Positions 13,720-55,015 of a DNA stretch of 64,000 nt are shown here, piece by piece. The stretch comes from Okamejei kenojei (Eukaryota): the NCBI GenBank assembly GCA_035221665.1, contig CM069162.1, positions 8,432,001-8,496,000 of the forward strand, in the 5' to 3' direction. The first letter of the stretch is position 1. Every line of letters starts with the position of its first letter. The notes under the pieces are model-generated. The model made no database searches. It was not told the DNA's origin and saw only the letters and a list, made by a program, of their open reading frames with translations. The translations under genes and the position numbers were made by a program.

Positions 13720-14190
13720 ACGACAGCACGGAAACAGGCCCTCTCGGCCCTTCTAGTCCGTGCCGAACACTTACTCTCCCCTAGTCCCATCTACCTGCAC
13801 TCAGACCACAACCCTCCATTCCTCTCCCGTCCATATACCTATCTAATTCATTTTTAAATGATAAAGTCGAACCTGCCTGCACCGCTTCCACTGGAAGCTC
13901 ATTCCACCCAGCTACCACTCTCTGAGTAAAGAAGTTCCCCCTCATGTTACCCCTAAACTTCTGTCCCTTAATTCTCAAATCATGTCCTCTTGTTTGAATC
14001 TTCCCTACTCTCAATGGAAAAAGCTTATCCACGTCAACTCTGTCTATCCCTCTCATCATTTTAAAGACCTCAATCAAGTCCCCCCTTAACCTTCTGCGCT
14101 CCAAAGAATAAAGATCTAACTTGTTCAACCTTTCTCTGTAACCCAGTTGCTGAAACCCAGGCAACATTCTAGTAAATCTCCTCTGTACTC
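13720..14190 (-). mobile_element. CR1-type LINE 3' fragment (ORF2 C-terminus and 3' UTR)
   Basis: ORF 13781-14167: YRERLNKLDLYSLERRRLRGDLIEVFK...TRGH...FFTQRVV..WNELP, typical of the CR1 ORF2 end. Confidence 0.92.
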
Positions 14191-15264
14191 GCCGTGCATG
14201 GGGAGAAGGGGTGGCCAGAAGTCATCGGATCTGCGCATTCGGATGGATGCATGGGACCCTGGGTGGAAAGTTCGCAGAGGTTTGCAGTCAACTTTGAATT
14301 CCTTTAAAGAGCAAGCGACGTCAGCTGGGAGTGTTGTTTTGAGGGACTGCAGTTTGCGTGTGACTTCACAGCCATGACTGCAGAAGAACTCCCGCAGAGG
14401 CGAGCTGGTGAGCCGCTGGTTCAGGCGTTAAGCCTCTAACTGTGGTGGATGTGGAGGCGGCATCACGACAAGGACTGGCGGGCGTTAACGCTGCCCCCGC
14501 CGGATATTAGGACGAGAACTGTAGCCCGTCCATCGCTCGGTGGCCGTTTGTAAATTCAGCAAAGTTCATTGCTACTTATTGAGTAAATAGTCGCATGTCT
14601 CCAGAAGGCGCGACTGCACCTGCAGATAATTACAGCGCGATAGAATCTAATTAATAGGCTTTCTCTCTCCGCCCTCACTAATCTTGGCTTCAGTGCTTGA
14701 TATCAACTTCCTGGAATCCCCGATGATTAACATATATGGAATAATATCACTTTTAAATTCCCAAGCTGTCAACTCCAGAACCAAATTACAAAGTATACAT
14801 AATACTCACATACCTTTATGCGCACAGACGCACACATGTACACAAACATATCATTTGAGCTGCAGCTAAAGCAACAAATAAACTGGGTCGGGGTGTTAAA
14901 ATAGTCTGCATCTCAATCAGTTTCAAGTGCAGTTACCAGCAAACTACTTCAGCGCTGAATAATGAAACCGCAAGGTGCTAATACGTACTGCACTCTTGAC
15001 ATCATTCTGAGTAACAAACTTGAATGTTTACAGCTGAGAGAGAGACTTGGAATGAATGTGATCCAAAATGTGCAATGTCAATGTGTAGACATCTACTGCT
15101 AAACATAAACGTCACATTCCTTTTCTCCGGAGACGCTGCCTGACCCCCTGAGTTACTCCAGCATTTTCGCGTCCATCTTCGGTGTAAACCAGCATCTGTA
15201 GTTCCTTCCTACACCTAATGTGTAGAGGAAGTCGAGCAGACTCTTCTATTTAGATATGGAATTT

Positions 15265-15440: not shown

Positions 15441-15769
15441 TGTAAAACATTTCCAAGTTGGCGATATGCAGAGTACTGCCCTGCCGACTACAACACTCAG
15501 AAGGAGAAGACAGAAAGTGCTGGAGTAACTCCGCGGGCCAGGCAGCATCTGTGGAGAACTTGGATAGGTGACGTTTCAGGTTGGAACCATGCAGGTGAGT
15601 GGATGTTTGATAGGCTTTGGCCTGCCCCTCCTCTCTTCCAGCTTTCTCCACCCCCACCCCCCCACCCTCCCCACAATCAGTCTGACCAAGGGTCCAAACA
15701 TGAAACGTTACCTATCTTTCGGCACACAACAAAGCATCTTTAACCCCCCCCCCCCCCCCCCATTCCCAC

Positions 15770-16100
15770 ACTGACCTTTCTGTCCTGGGCCGCCTCTATT
15801 GTCAGAGTGAAGCCCAACGCAAATTGGAAGAACACCACCTCATATTTCGCTTGGGTAGCTTGAACCCCAGCGGTGTGAACATTACCTCAAACTTCAAGTA
15901 ACTCTTGCTTTCCCACTCTCTCCATCCTTCCCAGTTCTACCACCAGTCTTACTGTCTCGGACTACAATTATGAAGAAGGGTTTTGGCCCGAAACGTTGCC
16001 TATTTCCTTCGCTCCATAGATGCTGCTGCACCCGCTGAGTTTCTCCAGCACGTTTGTCTACCTTTGATTTTCCAGCATCTGCAGTTCCTTCTTAAACATT
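15770..16100 (+). mobile_element. Penelope-like element 3' fragment (end of GIY-YIG ORF plus terminal repeat)
   Basis: Encodes ..RKLEEHHLIFRLGSL.PSGVNI, homologous to 19870-20000, followed by TGAAGAAGGGTTTTGGCCCGAAACGTTG and the repeat arm. Confidence 0.75.
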
Positions 16101-16212
16101 TTATCTCTGTTTGCTTTGTTGTCACCTTCTCCCAACTAACCATGATCTATTCTACATTTTCTTTGAACTTCGTCCCCTTTGTCCTGTTTTCACACCTTAC
16201 ACTTCCTTATCT

Positions 16213-16520
16213 ATGTGTAGGAAAGAACTGTAGATGCTGGTTTAAATCGAATGTAGGCATAACATGCTGGCGTAACTCAGGGGCACAGGCAGCATCTTTG
16301 GCGAGAAGGAATGGGCGACATTTCGGGTCGAGACCCTTCTTCAGACTTCTTCCCTTCCTCCTTATCTATGTACCTCCCTCTTCACATCAACCTGAAGAAG
16401 GGTCTCGACCCGAAACGTCACCCATTCCTTCTCTCCAGAGATGCTGCCTGTCCCGCTGAGTTACTCCAGCATTTTGTGTCTATCTTCGATTAAAACCAAC
16501 ATCTGCAGTTCCTTCCTACA
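16213..16520. mobile_element. Penelope-derived hairpin element retaining a hammerhead-like core on each strand
   Basis: Minus-strand core at 16317-16344 and plus-strand core at 16392-16419 between inverted arms. Confidence 0.8.
16392..16419 (+). ncRNA. Minimal type-I hammerhead ribozyme-like motif
   Basis: CTGAAGA A GGGT-CTCG-ACCC GAAAC GTC: CUGANGA box, helix II, GAAA box, palindromic ACGU helix III, GUC triplet; helix I weak. Confidence 0.6.
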
Positions 16521-16769
16521 CATAAAGCATTTTGTAAGCTGCAAGGTACAAACCAGGAGACTGATAATAACATTGACAGACACAAAATGCTGGAGTAACT
16601 CAACAGGTCAGGCTGGAGAACATGGATGGGTGACGTTTTGGTTCGGGACCTATCTTCAGTCTGAATGAGGAAATAATTTCACCTAGAGGAAAGGAAGCAA
16701 CCACCTTCAAGGGACTAACCATGGAAGAACAGGGAACTCACAATCTAGAACAAGATAACTGTCTACAAA

Positions 16770-17690
16770 GAATGTAGATCTTGAGCACGTTACTGTACAG
16801 CGGTGAAGCTTGGACAACTTGCCGACATCAGGAAGGGAAATCGGATAATTTTCATTACCGCTGTCTGTCACATCCTGGGAGTTTCTTGGCAGGGCAACCT
16901 CACCAATGAATCTGCCCTCTCCATGACCAATGTGCCTGGTTTCTCTGCGATCCCCAAGCAGAAGCACCTTCACTGCCTTGGACATGTACACAGGATGGAA
17001 AATGGACGCATCCCCAAAGGTAGACAGACAGACACAAAATGCTGGAGTAACTCAGCGAGACAGGCAGCATCTCAGGAGACAAGGCATGGGTGATGTTTCA
17101 GGTCAAGACCCTTCTTCAGACTGGGTCTCGACCTGAAACGCCTCCCATACCTTCTATTCGGAGATGCTGCCTGTCCCGCTGAGTTACTCCAGCATGTTGT
17201 GTCTATCTTCAGTGTAAACCAGCTTCTGCAGTTCCTGCCTATGCATCCCCAAATATGTGCTACATGTGGAGAGGGCACCAATGCACAGAGGCCAAGTTGA
17301 AGACCAAACATTGCTGCATGGATACCATTAAAAGAGGTATGACAAATGTTAACACTGGCATTGACTACTGGGACACAGCTGCTGAGAACTGGGGGAGGGA
17401 GAGAAGGGACCTCCAGGTGAGAGTGAAGCACCAGGACTGAATGTGGTTCAAGACCCTGGAGGGCATGCGCCAACACCACAAAATGGTCAACGGCAAGAGC
17501 AACACACTCCCCAATCCAACGGCCAGAGACAACTTCACCTGTGGGAGCTGTGGGAAGATCTGCCTGTCGAGGATAGACCTGGTCACCCACAGCGGGAAAT
17601 GTAACCACACATGAAACGTTCCCCTCGCCAAGCCGGGCAATGTCAAAGTCACATCACCATCTCCCACAGATGGACGGATGCCAACCGACC
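16770..17690 (+). mobile_element. Degenerate RTE-clade LINE 3' fragment, interrupted by a hairpin element at 17027-17241
   Basis: ILGVSWQ..LTNE.....LGHVHRMENGRIPK, then a C-terminal FTCGSCGKICLSRIDLVTH..C zinc-finger-like motif. Confidence 0.75.
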
Positions 17691-19390: not shown

Positions 19391-19727
19391 TTGGATGCTG
19401 GGAATACAGTTTCAGTTCAGCTTATTGTCACGGGTACGGAGAAAAGCTTTTGTTGCTTGGTAACCAGTCAGCAGAAAGACAATACATGATTACAATCAAT
19501 CCATTGACAGTGTATAGATACATGATAAGGGAATAATGTTCAGTGCAAAGTTAAGCCAGCGAAGAGGAATTGTTGCTGACAGAATACAGATTGATGAGTG
19601 TGGAGCAATTGTAACGTGAGCTTGTAGATCTGCTTCTGAGGGTAGCATGCAAATAGTTGCCTGGGTTGGGCACCATCTTGGAAACAACGGCAAGGAAGTT
19701 GAACTGAGCGTTTATAATTCACCGACA

Positions 19728-20580
19728 GACAAAAGTGCTGGAGAAACTCAGCGGGTGCAGCAGCATCTATGGAGCGAAGGAAATGGGCAACGTTTCGAGC
19801 CGAAACCCTTCTTCAGACTGATGTGGGGTGGGGGGCGGGAAGAAGAAAGGAAGAGGGAGGGCTGAGAAGGGGAGGAGACAGTAAGGACTACCTGAAATTA
19901 GAGAAGTCAATGTTTATGCCGCTAGGGTGCAGACTGCCTAGTGCTGGAGGTGCTGCTCCTCCAATTTACGGTGGTCCTCACTCTGGCCATGGAGGAGGCC
20001 GAGGACAGAAAAGTCGGATTCGGAATGGGAGGGGGAGATGAAGTGCTGAGCCACCAGGAGATCAGGTTGGTTATTGCGAACTAAGTGGAGGTGTTCGGCG
20101 AAGCGATCGCCAAGCCTACACTTGGTCTCACCGATGTAGATTAGCTGACATCTAGAGCAGCTGATGCAGTAGATGAGGTTGGAGGAGGTGCAGGTGAACC
20201 TCTGCCACAACTGGAAAGACTGCTTGGGTCCTTGAATGGAGTCAAGGGGGGAGGTAAAGCGACAAGTGTAGCATTTCTTGCAGTTGCAAGGGAAAGTGCC
20301 CAGAGAGGGGATGGTTCTGGTGGGAAGGGATGAATTGACCAGGGAGTTACGGAGGGAGCGGTCTCTGCGGAAAGCAGACAGGGGAGGAGATGAAGATGTG
20401 GCAAGTGGTGGGATCATTTTGGAGGTGGCGAGAATGACTGAGGATTATTTGTTGTACGTGACGGCCGGTAGGGTGGAAGGTGAGAACAAGGGGGACTCTG
20501 CCCTTGTTATGAGTGGGGGTATGGGGAGTGAGAGTAGAGTCATGGGGTATAGAAGAGACCCTGGTGAGAGCCTCACCTGT
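19728..20580 (-). mobile_element. Penelope-like retroelement fragment: GIY-YIG endonuclease end, 3' region and terminal repeat
   Basis: PLVLTFHP motif, Cys-rich FPCNCKKCYTC, then FTCTSSNLIYCISCSRCQLIYIGETK.RL.DRFAEH (GIY-YIG; the Cys-rich segment suggests the Neptune group); frameshifted. Confidence 0.92.
19789..19816 (-). ncRNA. Hammerhead-like motif in the Penelope terminal repeat
   Basis: Reverse complement CTGAAGA A GGGT-TTCG-GCTC GAAAC GTT, same strand as and directly 3' of the GIY-YIG ORF. Confidence 0.6.
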
Positions 20581-22741: not shown

Positions 22742-25440
22742 AATAGGTGCAGGAGTAGGCCATTCGGCCCTTCAAGCCAGCACCGCCATTAATGTGATCA
22801 TGGCTGATCATCCACAATCAGTACCCCGTTCCTGCCTTCTCCCCATATCCCCTGACTGCGCTATCTTTAAGAGCCCTATCAAGCGATCTCTTGAAAGTAT
22901 CCAGAGAACCGGCCTCCACCACCTCCACAGACTCACAACTCTCTGTGTGAAAAAGTGTTTCCTCATCTCCATTCTAAATGCCTTACCCCTTATTCTTAAA
23001 CTGTGCCCCTGGTTCTGGACTCCCCCAACATCGGGAACATGTTTCCTGCCTCCAGCCGCTCTATTCTCTCAGCATATCACAATCCCGCCATCGCGGGAAT
23101 TAGCCTTGTGAACGCTGAATACGCTGCACTCCCTCAATAGCAAGAATGTCCTTCCTCAAATTAGGGGACCAAAACTGCACAACAATACTCCAGGTGTGGT
23201 CTCACTAGGGCCCTGTACAACTGCAGAAGGACCTCTTTGCTCCTATACTCAACTCCTTTTGTTATGAAGGCCAACATGCCAGTCACTTTCTTCACTGCCT
23301 GCTGTAACTGCATGCTTACTTTCATTGTCTGATGAACAAGGACCCCCAGATCCCATTGTACTTCCCCTTTTCGCAACTGGACACCATTTAGATAATAATC
23401 TGCCTTCCTGTTTTTGCTACCAAAATGGATAACCTCACATTTATCCTCATTGAACTGCATCTGCCATGCATCTGCCCACTCACCCAACCTGTCCAAGTCA
23501 CCCTGTATTCTCATAGCATCCTCCTCACAGTTCACACTGCCACCCAGCTTTGTGTCATCTGCAAATGTGCTAATGTTACTTTGAATCACTTCATCTAAAT
23601 CATTGATGTATATTGTAAATAGCTGCAGGTCCCAGCACTGCCTGGCATTCTGAAAGTAAGTAAGTAAGTTTATTGGCCAAGTATTCACATACAAGGAATT
23701 TGCCTTGGTGCTCCGCCCACAAGTAACATCATGGCATACAGTAACAGTTATGAATGACTCAGAAAACACTGAACATTAATAATAATAAAACATTAATGAT
23801 AAAACACCATTGATCAAGCATGTGAACCAACAAAATACCAGATCAAAGGGAGGCTACAGATTTTTGGCTGTTGAGTAGAGCAACTACTCATGGATAATAA
23901 CTGTTTTTATGTCTGGCTGTGGCAGCTTTGACAGTCCGGAGTCGCCTTCCAGAGGGAAGTGATTCAAAGAGTTTGTGGCCAGGGTGAGAGGGGTCAGAGA
24001 TGATCTTGCCCGCTCGCTTCCTGGCCCTCGCAGTGTACGGTTCATCAATGGAGGGAAGGTTGCAGACAATAACCTTCTCTGCTGATCGGACGATTCGCTG
24101 CAGCCTCCAGGTGTCGTGCTTGGTGGCTGAGCCAAACCAGACCACGATGGAGAAGGTGAGAACAGACTCTACGATGGCCGTGTAGAATTGGACCATCATT
24201 ACCTGTGGCAGATTGTACTTCCTCAGCTGCCGTAGGAAGTACATCCTCTGTTATGCCTTTATGACTGCGGAGTCGAAAGGGACCCGTTAACTCCTACTCT
24301 TTGTTTCCTGTCTGCCAACCAATTTTCTATTCATGTCAGCACTCTACCCGCAATACCATGTGCCCTAATTTTGCCCACTAATCTCCTATGTGGGACCTTA
24401 TCAAATGCTTTCTGAAAGTCCAGGTACACTACATCCACTGCCTCTCCCTTGTCCATTTTCCTAGTCATATCCTCAAAAAATTCCAGAAGATTAGTCAAGC
24501 ATGATTTTCCCTTCGTAAATCCATGCTGATTCGGACCGATCCTGTTACTGCTATCCAAATTGGCCGCTATTTCATCTTTTATGATTGACTCCAGCATCTT
24601 CCTCACCACCGACGTCAGGCTAACTGGTCTATAATCCCTGTTTTCTCTCTCCTGCCTTTCTTAAAAAAGTGGGATAACATTAGCTACCCTCCAATCCACA
24701 GGAACTGAACCTGAATCTGTAGAACATTGGAAAATTAACACCAATGCGTTCACGATTTATAGAGCCACTTCCTTAAGTACCCTGGGATGCAGACCATCAG
24801 GCCCTGGGGATTTATCAGCCTTCAGTCCCATCAGTCTCCCCGACACCATTTCCTGCCTAATGTGGATTTCCTTCAGTTCCTCCGTCACCCCAGATCCTCT
24901 GGCCACTAGTACATCAGGAAGATTGTTTGTGTCCTCCTTAGTGAAGACGGATCCAAAGTACCTGTTCAACTCATCTGCCATTTCCTTGTTCCCCATAATA
25001 AATTCACTTTTTTCAGTCTTCAAGGGTCCAACTTTGGTCTTAACTAATTTTTTCCTCTTCACATACCTGAAGAAGCTTTCATTATTCTCAGTTATATCTT
25101 TGGCTAGCTTACCTTCGTACATCATCTTTTCTCCCCGTATTGCCTCTTTAGTTATCTTCCGTTGATCCTGAAACATTACGCAATCCTCTTGCTTCCCGCT
25201 CATCTTTGCTACGTTGTACTTCTCTTTTATTTTTATACTGTCACTGACGTCCCTTGTCAGCCACGGTCGCCCCTTACTCCCCTTGGAATCTTTCTTCCTC
25301 TTTGGAATGAACTGATCCTGCACCTTCTGTATTATTCCTAGAAATACCTGCTATTATTGTTCCACTGTCCTCTCCTGCTGGGGTATCTTTCCAGTCAACT
25401 TTGGCCAGCTCCTCCCTCATGGCTCCATAGTCCCTTTTGT
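22742..25440 (-). mobile_element. 5'-truncated CR1 LINE (ORF2 reverse transcriptase), broken, with a nested Rex1 insertion
   Basis: KSPGPDGLHPRVLKE, NQHGFTKGKSCLTNLLEFFE, VYLDFQKAFDKVPH, LFTIYINDL, FADDTKL, LYRALVRPHLEYC. Confidence 0.95.
23655..24275 (-). mobile_element. Rex1/Babar-type LINE 3' fragment nested in the CR1
   Basis: YFLRQLRK...FYTAIVESVLTFSIVVWFGS...DPSHPGHKLFESLPSGRRLR; AATAAA and (CTTA)n tail; GAAAG on both flanks. Confidence 0.88.
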
Positions 25441-42945: not shown

Positions 42946-44259
42946 CTCGGCTGTAATATTTTGCAATGTGAATTGGTTGTCAGTAAATGAGAGACTTCTA
43001 ATTTCAAGCAATTGCATAAACCTGGAAATAATAACACATTAGTATCGTTATTGGTAACACAAAGCTTTGGAATTATCATTAAAATCTATGCTCATGTCCT
43101 TCAGGAAGAGATCAATCGTCTTTACCCTAGCAAGCTCATGTGCTCTCAGACTTATTGCAGTGAGGCTATTAACTGCCTCATCCGTTCAGGGGCTGTGTGG
43201 GACAAGCAATATATCACCCTGCCCTGCATAGTGCAAATAAAACAACATTTAAACATCCTGGAAATGGACACAAAATGCTGGAGTAACTCAGAGGGACAGG
43301 CAGCATCTCTGGAGAGAAGGAATGGGTGATGTTTCGGGTTGAGACCCTTCTTCTGACTAATAAATTAAACTGATATCAGTCTGAAGAAGGGTCTCGGCCC
43401 ACTGATTTATCCAGCATTTTCTGTGTATCTTCGGTTTACACCAGTGTCTGTAGTTCCTTCCTACACAATGCTGTCGGGCAGACCAGGGAAATGCAGCACA
43501 CTTCCTCTGTCGGAGGGCATTAGCGACACAGAATTCGTTGACAATAAGCCTGGAATTATAAAGTTACTTGATGCTTTTTTACAATTCCAGTTTATCAGTT
43601 CATAAGTGATAGGAGCAAAATTGGGCCATTCGGCCCATCAAGTCTACTCTGCCATTCAATCATGGCTGATCTATCACTCCTAACCCAATTCTCCTGCCTT
43701 CTCCCCAGAACCCCTGACACCCATACAAATCACAAATCTATCTCTCTATCTGTGCCTTAAAAATATCAATTGACTTGGCCTCCACAGCCTACTCACTTCA
43801 GTTCAAATTCTCCAGGTACCACAATGGGATTTAATGTTAGTTTAAGCCCCTGGATTACTACTTGATTAATATAACCACTGTACAATTGTAATCAAGGGTG
43901 TAGGTTGTTCAAACAGCAGATAGGATCAATGATGGGATAATTTGCCTTTTGGGCATCATTCAGGTGTGTAACAAGAACTGTATTTGCATTTATTAAAACA
44001 TCTCTTGTACATGTCAATATAAACTTGTATTGTAGAAGTATTTGGGAGAAAGAATATTATTTTCTAGGCTTTACTAATGAAAACAAATGGAGAATTTGTC
44101 TTTGTGCCAACTGGGCACTGAGTTAAAGTCTGAGGGTGAATAGTTCCCCTGAGATTGCTCTCCTTGCTGCAACTGCAGCTGAAAATCCACAGCTGGATGG
44201 AGCCAGGAGTCTATGTGAGCGCTGGGAATCGTGCAACTCCGACGTGAAGGAACTAGAGT

Positions 44260-48704: not shown

Positions 48705-49390
48705 TATCTCCATGTTCAGCGACCGTTTCATCAAACATTTGCTCTCAGTCCGCCAAGGCCGGCTGGATCACCCGGTTACCAACCATTTTAACTTCTCTTC
48801 CCATTCCCACACCGACCTCTCTGTCCTGGGCCTCCTCCATTGCCAGAGTGAGGCCACACACAAACTGGAGGAACAGCACCTCGTATTCCACTTGGGTAGC
48901 TCACAACCTAACGGTATGAATATTGAATTCTAAATTTTAGCTAACCTCTAACAATCCCCCACCCCCTCCCCTTTCCCCCGCCATTTCCCTTTCTCCCCCC
49001 ACCTCATTCCCCTGTGCCGTTCCTGGATTTACACCTATTTCTCCCCTCCCCCCACCTACATTCCTTCACAATTTCCAGCTTTCCATCTTTTGTCTCACAC
49101 CTTGTGCTTTTTTTCATCTCCAGTATCTGTCCAACCATCTATCTATTTAAAGAAAACATTGCCTGCGTTCACCTACTACCTGCCAGGCTTCATCCTGCAT
49201 CTCCCCTTCTACTTTTGTTTCTCCCCCCCCCCCCCCCCCCTCCAAAAATCAGTCTGAGGAAGGGTCCCAACCCAAAATGTCACCTCTCCGTTCTCCAGAG
49301 ATGCTGCCTGAGCCGTTGAGTTACTCCAGCACTTTGTGTCTTTTTTTTTGTGCAAACCTGCATCTGCAGTTCAGTTCCTTGTTTCTAACA
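48705..49390 (+). mobile_element. Penelope-like element 3' fragment with terminal repeat
   Basis: DRFIKHLLSVR...PVTNHFN..SHSHTDLSVLGLLHCQSEATHKLEEQHLVFHLGS.QPNGMNIEF, then degenerate CTGAGGAAGGGTCCCAACCCAAAATGTC and arm. Confidence 0.85.
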
Positions 49391-50102: not shown

Positions 50103-50312
50103 GTGTGTGGGAAGGAACTGCAGATGCCGGTTTAAACCGAAGATAGACACAAAATGCTGGAGTAACTCAGCGGGACAGGCAGCATCTCTGGAGAGAAGGA
50201 ATGGGTGACGTTTCGGGTCTGAGGAAGGGTCTCGACCCAAAACATCGCCCTTTCCTTCTCTCCAGAGATGCTGCCTGTCCCGCTGAGTTACTCCAGCATT
50301 TTGGGTCTATCT
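50103..50312. mobile_element. Penelope-derived hairpin element
   Basis: Inverted arms; degenerate duplication TCTTCCAACGAGGTGT / TCTCCCATCAAGGTGT. Confidence 0.75.
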
Positions 50313-50469
50313 CCCATCAAGGTGTCAGTCTGATCATGAGTCGCTTAACAGACTCCTCCAAGTAACTCGATGGTTAATTGACTGCGTGAGGAATCACAGG
50401 TTCTTTGTCCTCCCAAAACTGTCTGATTCCAAATGCACTCAAAGACAACTGGCCTTGTCCTCGCCAATT

Positions 50470-54450: not shown

Positions 54451-54842
54451 AATAACAACCTAGCCTTTTAATGTCGCCTGCCTATTCCCTCCGCAGATAT
54501 TGCCTGGCCTGCTGAGTTACTCCAGTATTTGGTGTTTTGCTGCAGATTCCAGCATCTCTTGTGTTTCCATGTGGATCACGTCTACAGCCCCGGCTTCATC
54601 AATCTTCTTGGTTACTTCTTTAATCAAGTTTGTGAGGCACTATCCATAATCAACTTGTCCCTTCAATTAAATGTATATCTTATTCCTCAGAGACCTTAGA
54701 GTATCTTTCCTACTGTAGATGTTAGGCTTCCTGGTCTATAGTTCCCAGGTTTGACCACAAGCGTACTCAGTAATCTAAACATGGCCTTACCAACATCTTA
54801 CAAAGCTGTAACTTGACATCCCAACAACTGTACTCAATGGAA

Positions 54843-55015
54843 AATAGACACAAAATGCTGGAGTAACTCAGCGGGACAGGCAGTCTCTGGATAGAAGGAA
54901 TGGATGTCGTTTCGGGTCGAAACCCTTCTTCAGACAGGTGCTGCCTGTCCTACTGAGTTACTCCTGCATTTTGTGTCTATCTTCGGTGTAAACCAGCATC
55001 TGCAGTTCCTTCCTG
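54843..55015. mobile_element. Penelope-derived hairpin element
   Basis: Inverted arms. Confidence 0.7.

Follow-up and report, generated by a model that had tools for sequence, protein, structure and literature searches.

The window, i.e., the 64,000-nt stretch of Okamejei kenojei DNA analyzed here, contains many copies of a short motif that resembles the core of a hammerhead ribozyme, which raises the question of what element carries this motif, how its copies were inserted, and whether they act on RNA. An earlier note, made from the sequence of the window, had reported about 20 copies on both strands. Indeed, 20 matches with at most three mismatches are found, among them every position cited, and a chance match was rejected, since 100 shuffles of the window contain none. 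The hammerhead core heads a unit of 95-135 nt, and a profile search for this whole unit detects 58 copies in the window and 281 copies in 580 kb of the genome, taken as 58 evenly spaced 10-kb samples. The resulting density of 4.8 copies per 10 kb agrees with the several copies per 10 kb proposed before; scaled arithmetically, it corresponds to a genome total of about 1 to 1.3 million unit copies. In the genome of 2.76 Gb, 48,215 exact copies of the 28-mer are present (reversed control: 0), exceeding the 4,000-9,000 copies of coelacanth and Xenopus (Cervera and De la Pena, 2014; PMC4209133).

The proposed minimal type-I layout is recovered: the motif combines the CUGANGA and GAAA boxes and UH with helix II, has an extra base after A9, and carries the G10.1-C11.1 pair as well as a palindromic helix III (15.2-16.2). 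The minimal hammerheads in the pseudo-LTRs (pLTRs) of metazoan Penelope-like elements (PLEs) share these core boxes, the pLTR location, the base between positions 9 and 10.1, the G10.1-C11.1 pair and the palindromic 15.2-16.2, and a D. virilis variant likewise has a helix I of 2 bp (PMC4209133). Unlike in those hammerheads, helix II comprises 4 bp only, and the motif is nearly uniform across subfamilies. Helix I is as short as stated before, with 2 bp in 44 of the 57 copies that keep a 3′ UTR, and is absent from the otherwise perfect copy at 16392, where AAC stands in place of AGT in front of the core. The palindromic ACGU of helix III holds for the family, but has been lost by CpG decay of ACGT at 16317, 46258, and 18263, three of the positions previously listed.

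Helix II had been said to keep its pairing across two subfamilies with different loops. Both forms exist, along with a third loop variant, CCCG, but the change from U-A to U-G is one-sided. Among the descriptor matches, the differences in helix II amount to this change plus loop letters, the subfamilies being very close, and no double compensatory change is present. The descriptor search of 664 kb returned 25 matches (versus 1-3 in shuffles), of which 24 are this motif, and no second PLE hammerhead family usable for covariation was found in it. A scan against Rfam gave no hammerhead family among 67 matches at E-values up to 5, presumably because the minimal form lacks the helices that those models expect; the matches are hairpin look-alikes arising from inverted pairs.

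The suggested origin in a Penelope-like element is borne out, the traits of the motif being those of known PLE hammerheads (PMC4209133). Very probably, the motif is a minimal hammerhead that belongs to the pLTR of a Penelope-like retrotransposon of Neptune type, from whose ends the short, now decaying copies derive (Table 1). The full element reads 3′ UTR, hammerhead, tail, ATG, reverse transcriptase (RT), linker, GIY-YIG, 3′ UTR, hammerhead, and tail. Two full-length partial tandems (L066 and L077) contain UTR, hammerhead, tail, ATG, and ORF; their long frame has its first ATG about 160 nt behind C3, whereas the ORF of the Poseidon element PAc of the green anole starts inside the hammerhead (Frangieh et al., 2024; PMC11167929). 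[quoted passage not shown] A first-look search of the genome with the window fragment 19941-20444 gave 123,855 candidates, and 150 of them were scored; a PDB sequence search with the element ORF gave no matches. The previously noted association with GIY-YIG fragments holds, though not the placement directly 3′ of them, as the core lies 75-330 nt behind the ORF end.

Table 1. Positions of hammerhead units and associated features in the 64-kb window.
Feature	Position	Strand	Remarks
Minimal hammerhead core, perfect	16392..16419	+	C3-A9, extra A, GAAA, palindromic ACGU, GUC; 4-bp helix II, CUCG loop; predicted cut after 16419; helix I absent
A-subfamily pLTR end unit	16392..16522	+	Core, conserved stem region, long tail end (T2)
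3′ UTR (pLTR) of the 16392 A-subfamily copy, left part	16098..16216	+	Aligns to UTRs of L128, L109, L138
3′ UTR of the 16392 copy, rest	16360..16391	+	Right of nested insertion
Nested short unit	16212..16347	-	From AGT (three bases before C3) to long tail end
Hammerhead core of nested unit	16317..16344	-	Palindrome broken by CpG decay (ATGT)
Target-site duplication, left copy	16205..16216	+	12 identical bases, of which the last 4 also belong to the tail end of the unit
Target-site duplication, right copy	16360..16371	+	
B-subfamily copy	15761..16098	+	GIY-YIG ORF end 15761-15883, short UTR, core 15970 (C3 lost), long tail
B-subfamily copy, 5′-truncated	19724..20574	-	RT-thumb/linker/GIY-YIG fragment 19894-20574 (CX4CxxC), UTR, intact core 19789-19816, short tail end (T1)
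C-subfamily copy	48721..49372	+	GIY-YIG end 48721-48930, 320-nt UTR, decayed core at 49254
Head-to-head pair	17026..17241		Short + long tail, 11-bp duplication (typical single insertion)
Head-to-head pair, B subfamily	8728..8971		Long + short tail, 10-bp duplication
Head-to-head pair	50104..50320		Long + short tail, junction inside helix II
Further such head-to-head pairs	413-595, 2895-3100, 4661-4863, 6400-6586, 43264-43467, 54836-55014		

[quoted passage not shown] The linker reads C-x4-C-x2-C both in the window fragment 19894-20574 and in L021; this motif is the basis of the putative assignment to Neptune, and Nematis also has a linker motif (PMC8557442). The family further displays the marks of a pLTR, namely partial tandems, head-to-head pairs, and two 3′ ends about 35 nt apart, and members linked to an ORF exist in every subfamily checked (N1, A, B, and C in the labels of this analysis). 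As with the minimal hammerheads of other metazoans, most copies are single and truncated, and some form close pairs on opposite strands (PMC4209133). In contrast to the description of Neptune (PMC8557442), a microsatellite target bias is not evident among the duplications listed. This kind of motif and its host elements have been known since 2014; cartilaginous fish are not named in the portion of that account considered here, though its supplements may list a motif from them (PMC4209133). Our literature search, of partial coverage and at the level of listings, returned no description of the family in cartilaginous fish and none of a start site at the hammerhead's edge. As a ribozyme discovery, the motif carries little weight, its class and host elements having been described before; its value lies in a very large natural record of Penelope-type transposition.

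The family had also been called retrozyme-like, a label that does not hold: the copies are dispersed or head-to-head, contain the cut site, and are end-pieces of ORF-bearing elements. Non-LTR retrozymes do share the type-I hammerhead, the non-coding nature, and a relation to PLE pLTRs, and are defined as tandem repeats with canonical hammerheads, in which units of 150-450 bp are cut to monomers and circles (PMC7229834; bioRxiv 10.64898/2026.07.22.740005). Here, in contrast, stubs of 95-135 nt enclose the cut site. It nevertheless deserves consideration that the short unit might be a separate, non-autonomous SINE- or retrozyme-like element, moving via self-cleaved or circular RNA, as it has fixed boundaries, clean duplications, and a very high copy number, and would carry its own start site. 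Moreover, retrozymes at PLE ends have been described, including one from a cartilaginous fish (bioRxiv 10.64898/2026.07.22.740005), and a few short tandem duplications occur (L068, L094, and L104). However, the short copies of each subfamily match an ORF-bearing partner, only 4 of 178 anchored copies are directly tandem, and no tandem arrays were seen in 664 kb. Nor do the copies from the profile search have unit boundaries at the cleavage site: their DNA ends fall elsewhere, and the 2-3 ends per position at model positions 31-37 equal those at other positions. We regard a separate element as unlikely, and the absence of an excess of ends at the cleavage site suggests that the RNA that was copied was uncut.

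The end-pieces thus attributed to a Penelope-like element hint, by their fixed ends, at its likely mode of copying. The 3′ ends of the copies starting with AGT are bimodal, lying at +93-99 and +128-135 from AGT, in agreement with the anole element, whose tail is flanked by two internal sites of RT initiation (PMC11167929). Short copies represent independent insertions with target-site duplications, whose length peaks at 14 bp. Among 100 adjacent pairs, 66 are head-to-head and 24 lie on the same strand. In the young family, 24 of the 26 classifiable pairs (3 of 29 had an unclassifiable end) combine one short and one long tail; after duplicates were merged by hand, this holds for 20 of 21 pairs (p ~1e-7 against the 0.39 from single copies, ~1e-5 against 0.5). 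The same combination is found in 54 of 63 pairs of the older subfamilies (25 of 88 being unclassifiable) and in 22/22 where a duplication is visible. That the tail is often present at one end only was known qualitatively (PMC8557442; PMC3846280). A DNA transposon or MITE was rejected as the source, since the arms of the inverted pairs are unequal and their junctions vary.

By these counts, a single staggered cut seems to have been primed on both strands, once per site. The endonuclease would nick both target strands about 14 bp apart, and each nick could then serve as a primer at either of the two internal start sites, yielding either single stubs or head-to-head pairs; judging from the genomic copies, we consider nicking and priming of this kind probable. 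Likewise, PAc uses two internal RT start sites around the tail, extends both strands, and takes uncleaved RNA as template (PMC11167929), features that here would follow from the genomic copies. However, the genomic pairs use one site each, whereas the anole protein in vitro makes no difference between the strands in its start sites (PMC11167929), and 8 of the 63 older pairs are short plus short, which speaks against a strict coupling.

Among these 63 older pairs, 16317/16392 is the sole one with two long tails. It is a nested event, in which the plus-strand copy received a minus-strand short unit within its 3′ UTR, as evidenced by the 12 bases at 16205-16216 that are repeated at 16360-16371. 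A transcript across 16317 and 16392 would be predicted to fold into a long hairpin, which would mask the ribozyme structure.

The 5′ ends are fixed as well. Of 178 copies anchored at C3 (classed automatically, a few being misplaced), 119 lack the upstream UTR, and their sequence is random from about -4. Fifty young N1 copies were taken as an unselected series, from which 13 of 63 had been excluded as belonging to other subfamilies. Of these 50, 23 stop no more than 9 nt from C3, five stop within the following 300 nt, and 22 continue beyond; the young ends range from 0 to -9 and are most frequent at -2 rather than at the initiator A (-3). Contigs of four runs from two studies also have loose ends there, the evidence from the 24 runs consisting of assembled contigs, most of them only guessed to be RNA. 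The short copies were likely made by the element's own enzyme, which would start RT inside the element RNA and stop at a fixed point just before the hammerhead, and this stop is probably the 5′ end of the RNA.

From the pattern of ends, we lean towards a capped transcription start at an initiator-like TCAGT as the nature of this point. TCAGT is common to most subfamilies although their UTRs otherwise differ, and matches an initiator. A start at this site would explain why helix I is limited to 2 bp. A similar TCACT was noted in a rotifer pLTR (PMC3846280), and Penelope of D. virilis has an internal promoter (PMC2377424); its start is located farther upstream, and helix I marks the end of an intron (PMC2377424; PMC4209133), so that the arrangement would differ here.

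The capped start is the simplest reading. A close rival, to which we give a somewhat lower probability, is that the end is made at the level of DNA or RNP, either by trimming of the cDNA by the endonuclease or by an RT that stalls or jumps, just past the hammerhead. This would fit the scatter of the 5′ ends across some 10 nt, most often at -2, the many inversion junctions in the self-complementary helix II, and the attribution of the tail to endonuclease resolution (PMC8557442). Added bases, which are frequent and mixed, point in the same direction: among 110 non-redundant loci starting with AGT (20 of 130 were dropped as duplicates), a clean duplication is seen in 32 (9-25 bp, mode 14), of which 23 carry added bases. 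By contrast, the conserved TCAGT, its initiator match, the rotifer TCACT, and the internal promoter of Penelope speak for a start defined in the RNA, as does a G directly before AGT in 44 of 110 copies, compared to 14 of 110 two bases further out. This G signal is weak, however, when the added bases themselves serve as control: 11 of 23 added stretches end in G, compared to 26 of 84 other added bases, which is not significant (p = 0.15). Clean single added bases are G in 4/4 cases, with an A in one further case beside an inversion.

A further reading takes the AG before the core as a splice acceptor, as in D. virilis, so that splicing would give a longer helix I. In line with this, a pyrimidine-rich UTR followed by CAG precedes the core in 86% of the UTR-bearing copies, and there is the precedent of Penelope in D. 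virilis (PMC4209133). However, the short copies keep AG or G and have no common exon ahead of them, and GT..AG is found in none of the best 15 of 70 joints in assembled contigs, making a splice acceptor quite improbable.

With regard to the capped start, one further observation concerns the sequence downstream. Counted with the A of AGT as +1, the unit has a G at +24 and G-T-Y-R at +29 to +32. These letters agree with four of the five in a downstream promoter element and are correctly spaced, a weak resemblance that would arise by chance about once in 20 cases.

Whether the copies still function as ribozymes can be judged from their decay. Copies were chosen by their downstream part to avoid selecting for the core. 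Of 170 randomly sampled copies, the catalytic letters are retained in 37, and in 18 (~11% of the 170) helix II and the palindrome are preserved as well. In 50 copies of subfamily A, non-CpG catalytic sites differ at 34 of 471 positions (7.2%), compared to 146 of 2069 (7.1%) in the downstream control (p = 0.92; four polymorphic columns were left out of the control, which with them reads 212/2266). The catalytic G12, which is part of a CpG, differs in 10 of 45 copies, like other CpG sites at 22%. In a test of pooled subfamilies, the values are 6.8% versus 8.8% (p = 0.03), with a control that is mixed with differences between subfamilies. As the catalytic sites decay at the control rate, the dispersed copies are neutral fossils, and any conservation would be confined to the replicating lineage. 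Moreover, in all six contexts folded, the predicted probability of helix II is at most 0.01, because GAAGAAGG is predicted to pair with downstream pyrimidines.

Minimal hammerheads show no cleavage as monomers and low activity as dimers (PMC4209133), the hammerhead of the anole PLE is cleaved with assistance by the protein (PMC11167929), and of nine Xenopus dimers, one was cleaved and eight were not (bioRxiv 10.64898/2026.07.22.740005). By analogy, we tend to think that cleavage by the ribozyme is weak and depends on a dimer or on the protein of the element, and that the copied template is uncleaved RNA. The earlier note had raised the possibility that intact copies cut read-through transcripts of the host. 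In favor of such cutting being frequent enough to matter, and to come under selection for or against it, the ~11% of intact copies scale to some 100,000 sites. However, the catalytic positions decay neutrally, helix II is predicted to be out-competed, and same-strand partners for a dimer are rare; the inactivity of monomers and of most Xenopus dimers and the absence of RNA-seq ends at the anole site (PMC11167929) argue in the same direction. Host read-through cleavage looks unlikely for most copies, and an effect large enough to matter is very improbable.

Taken together with the preferred capped start, these observations permit a tentative and rather speculative model: the hammerhead would form the first 31 bases of a capped transcript, and its cleavage would decap the RNA and thereby switch it between template and message. 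The ~1 million stubs would then be strong-stop-like cDNAs, and double-primed insertions would use the two RT start sites, one each, on a 14-bp staggered cut. If true, the stubs would provide a genome-scale readout of a PLE transposition intermediate. The fixed 5′ point and the rule of one short and one long tail lead to two sharp predictions, which concern the start of the RNA and the sharing of start sites between the strands.

Several minor observations concern the surroundings of the copies. Two head-to-head insertions recur with identical flanks (L153, L155, L158, and L163-L165; L141, L143, and L144), accounting for 26 (TGA) and 6 (GAA) of the first 100 matches listed, as these two insertions landed in other repeats that then multiplied. 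Three differently built insertions (L100, L205, and L301) share the same duplicated target (CAGGTTTGTAG...) in a common short repeat, possibly a preferred target site. One Penelope-like copy (L062) lies within sequence that by eye resembles the pol/env region of an endogenous retrovirus. At 16389-16459 of the window and in other copies, the AG and a pyrimidine tract could serve as a cryptic splice acceptor for host transcripts, and short open frames follow the AG of the unit. LINE ORF2 fragments, recognized by eye from translations at 23161-25350 and 13781-14221, are presumably of CR1/L2 type. Lastly, the minus strand at 9992-10956 contains a single-exon forkhead gene (Pfam Forkhead, E = 1e-39), which we take to be of FoxL2/FoxL3 appearance; its frame shifts near 10,390, behind the domain, reflecting either an assembly error or a pseudogene.
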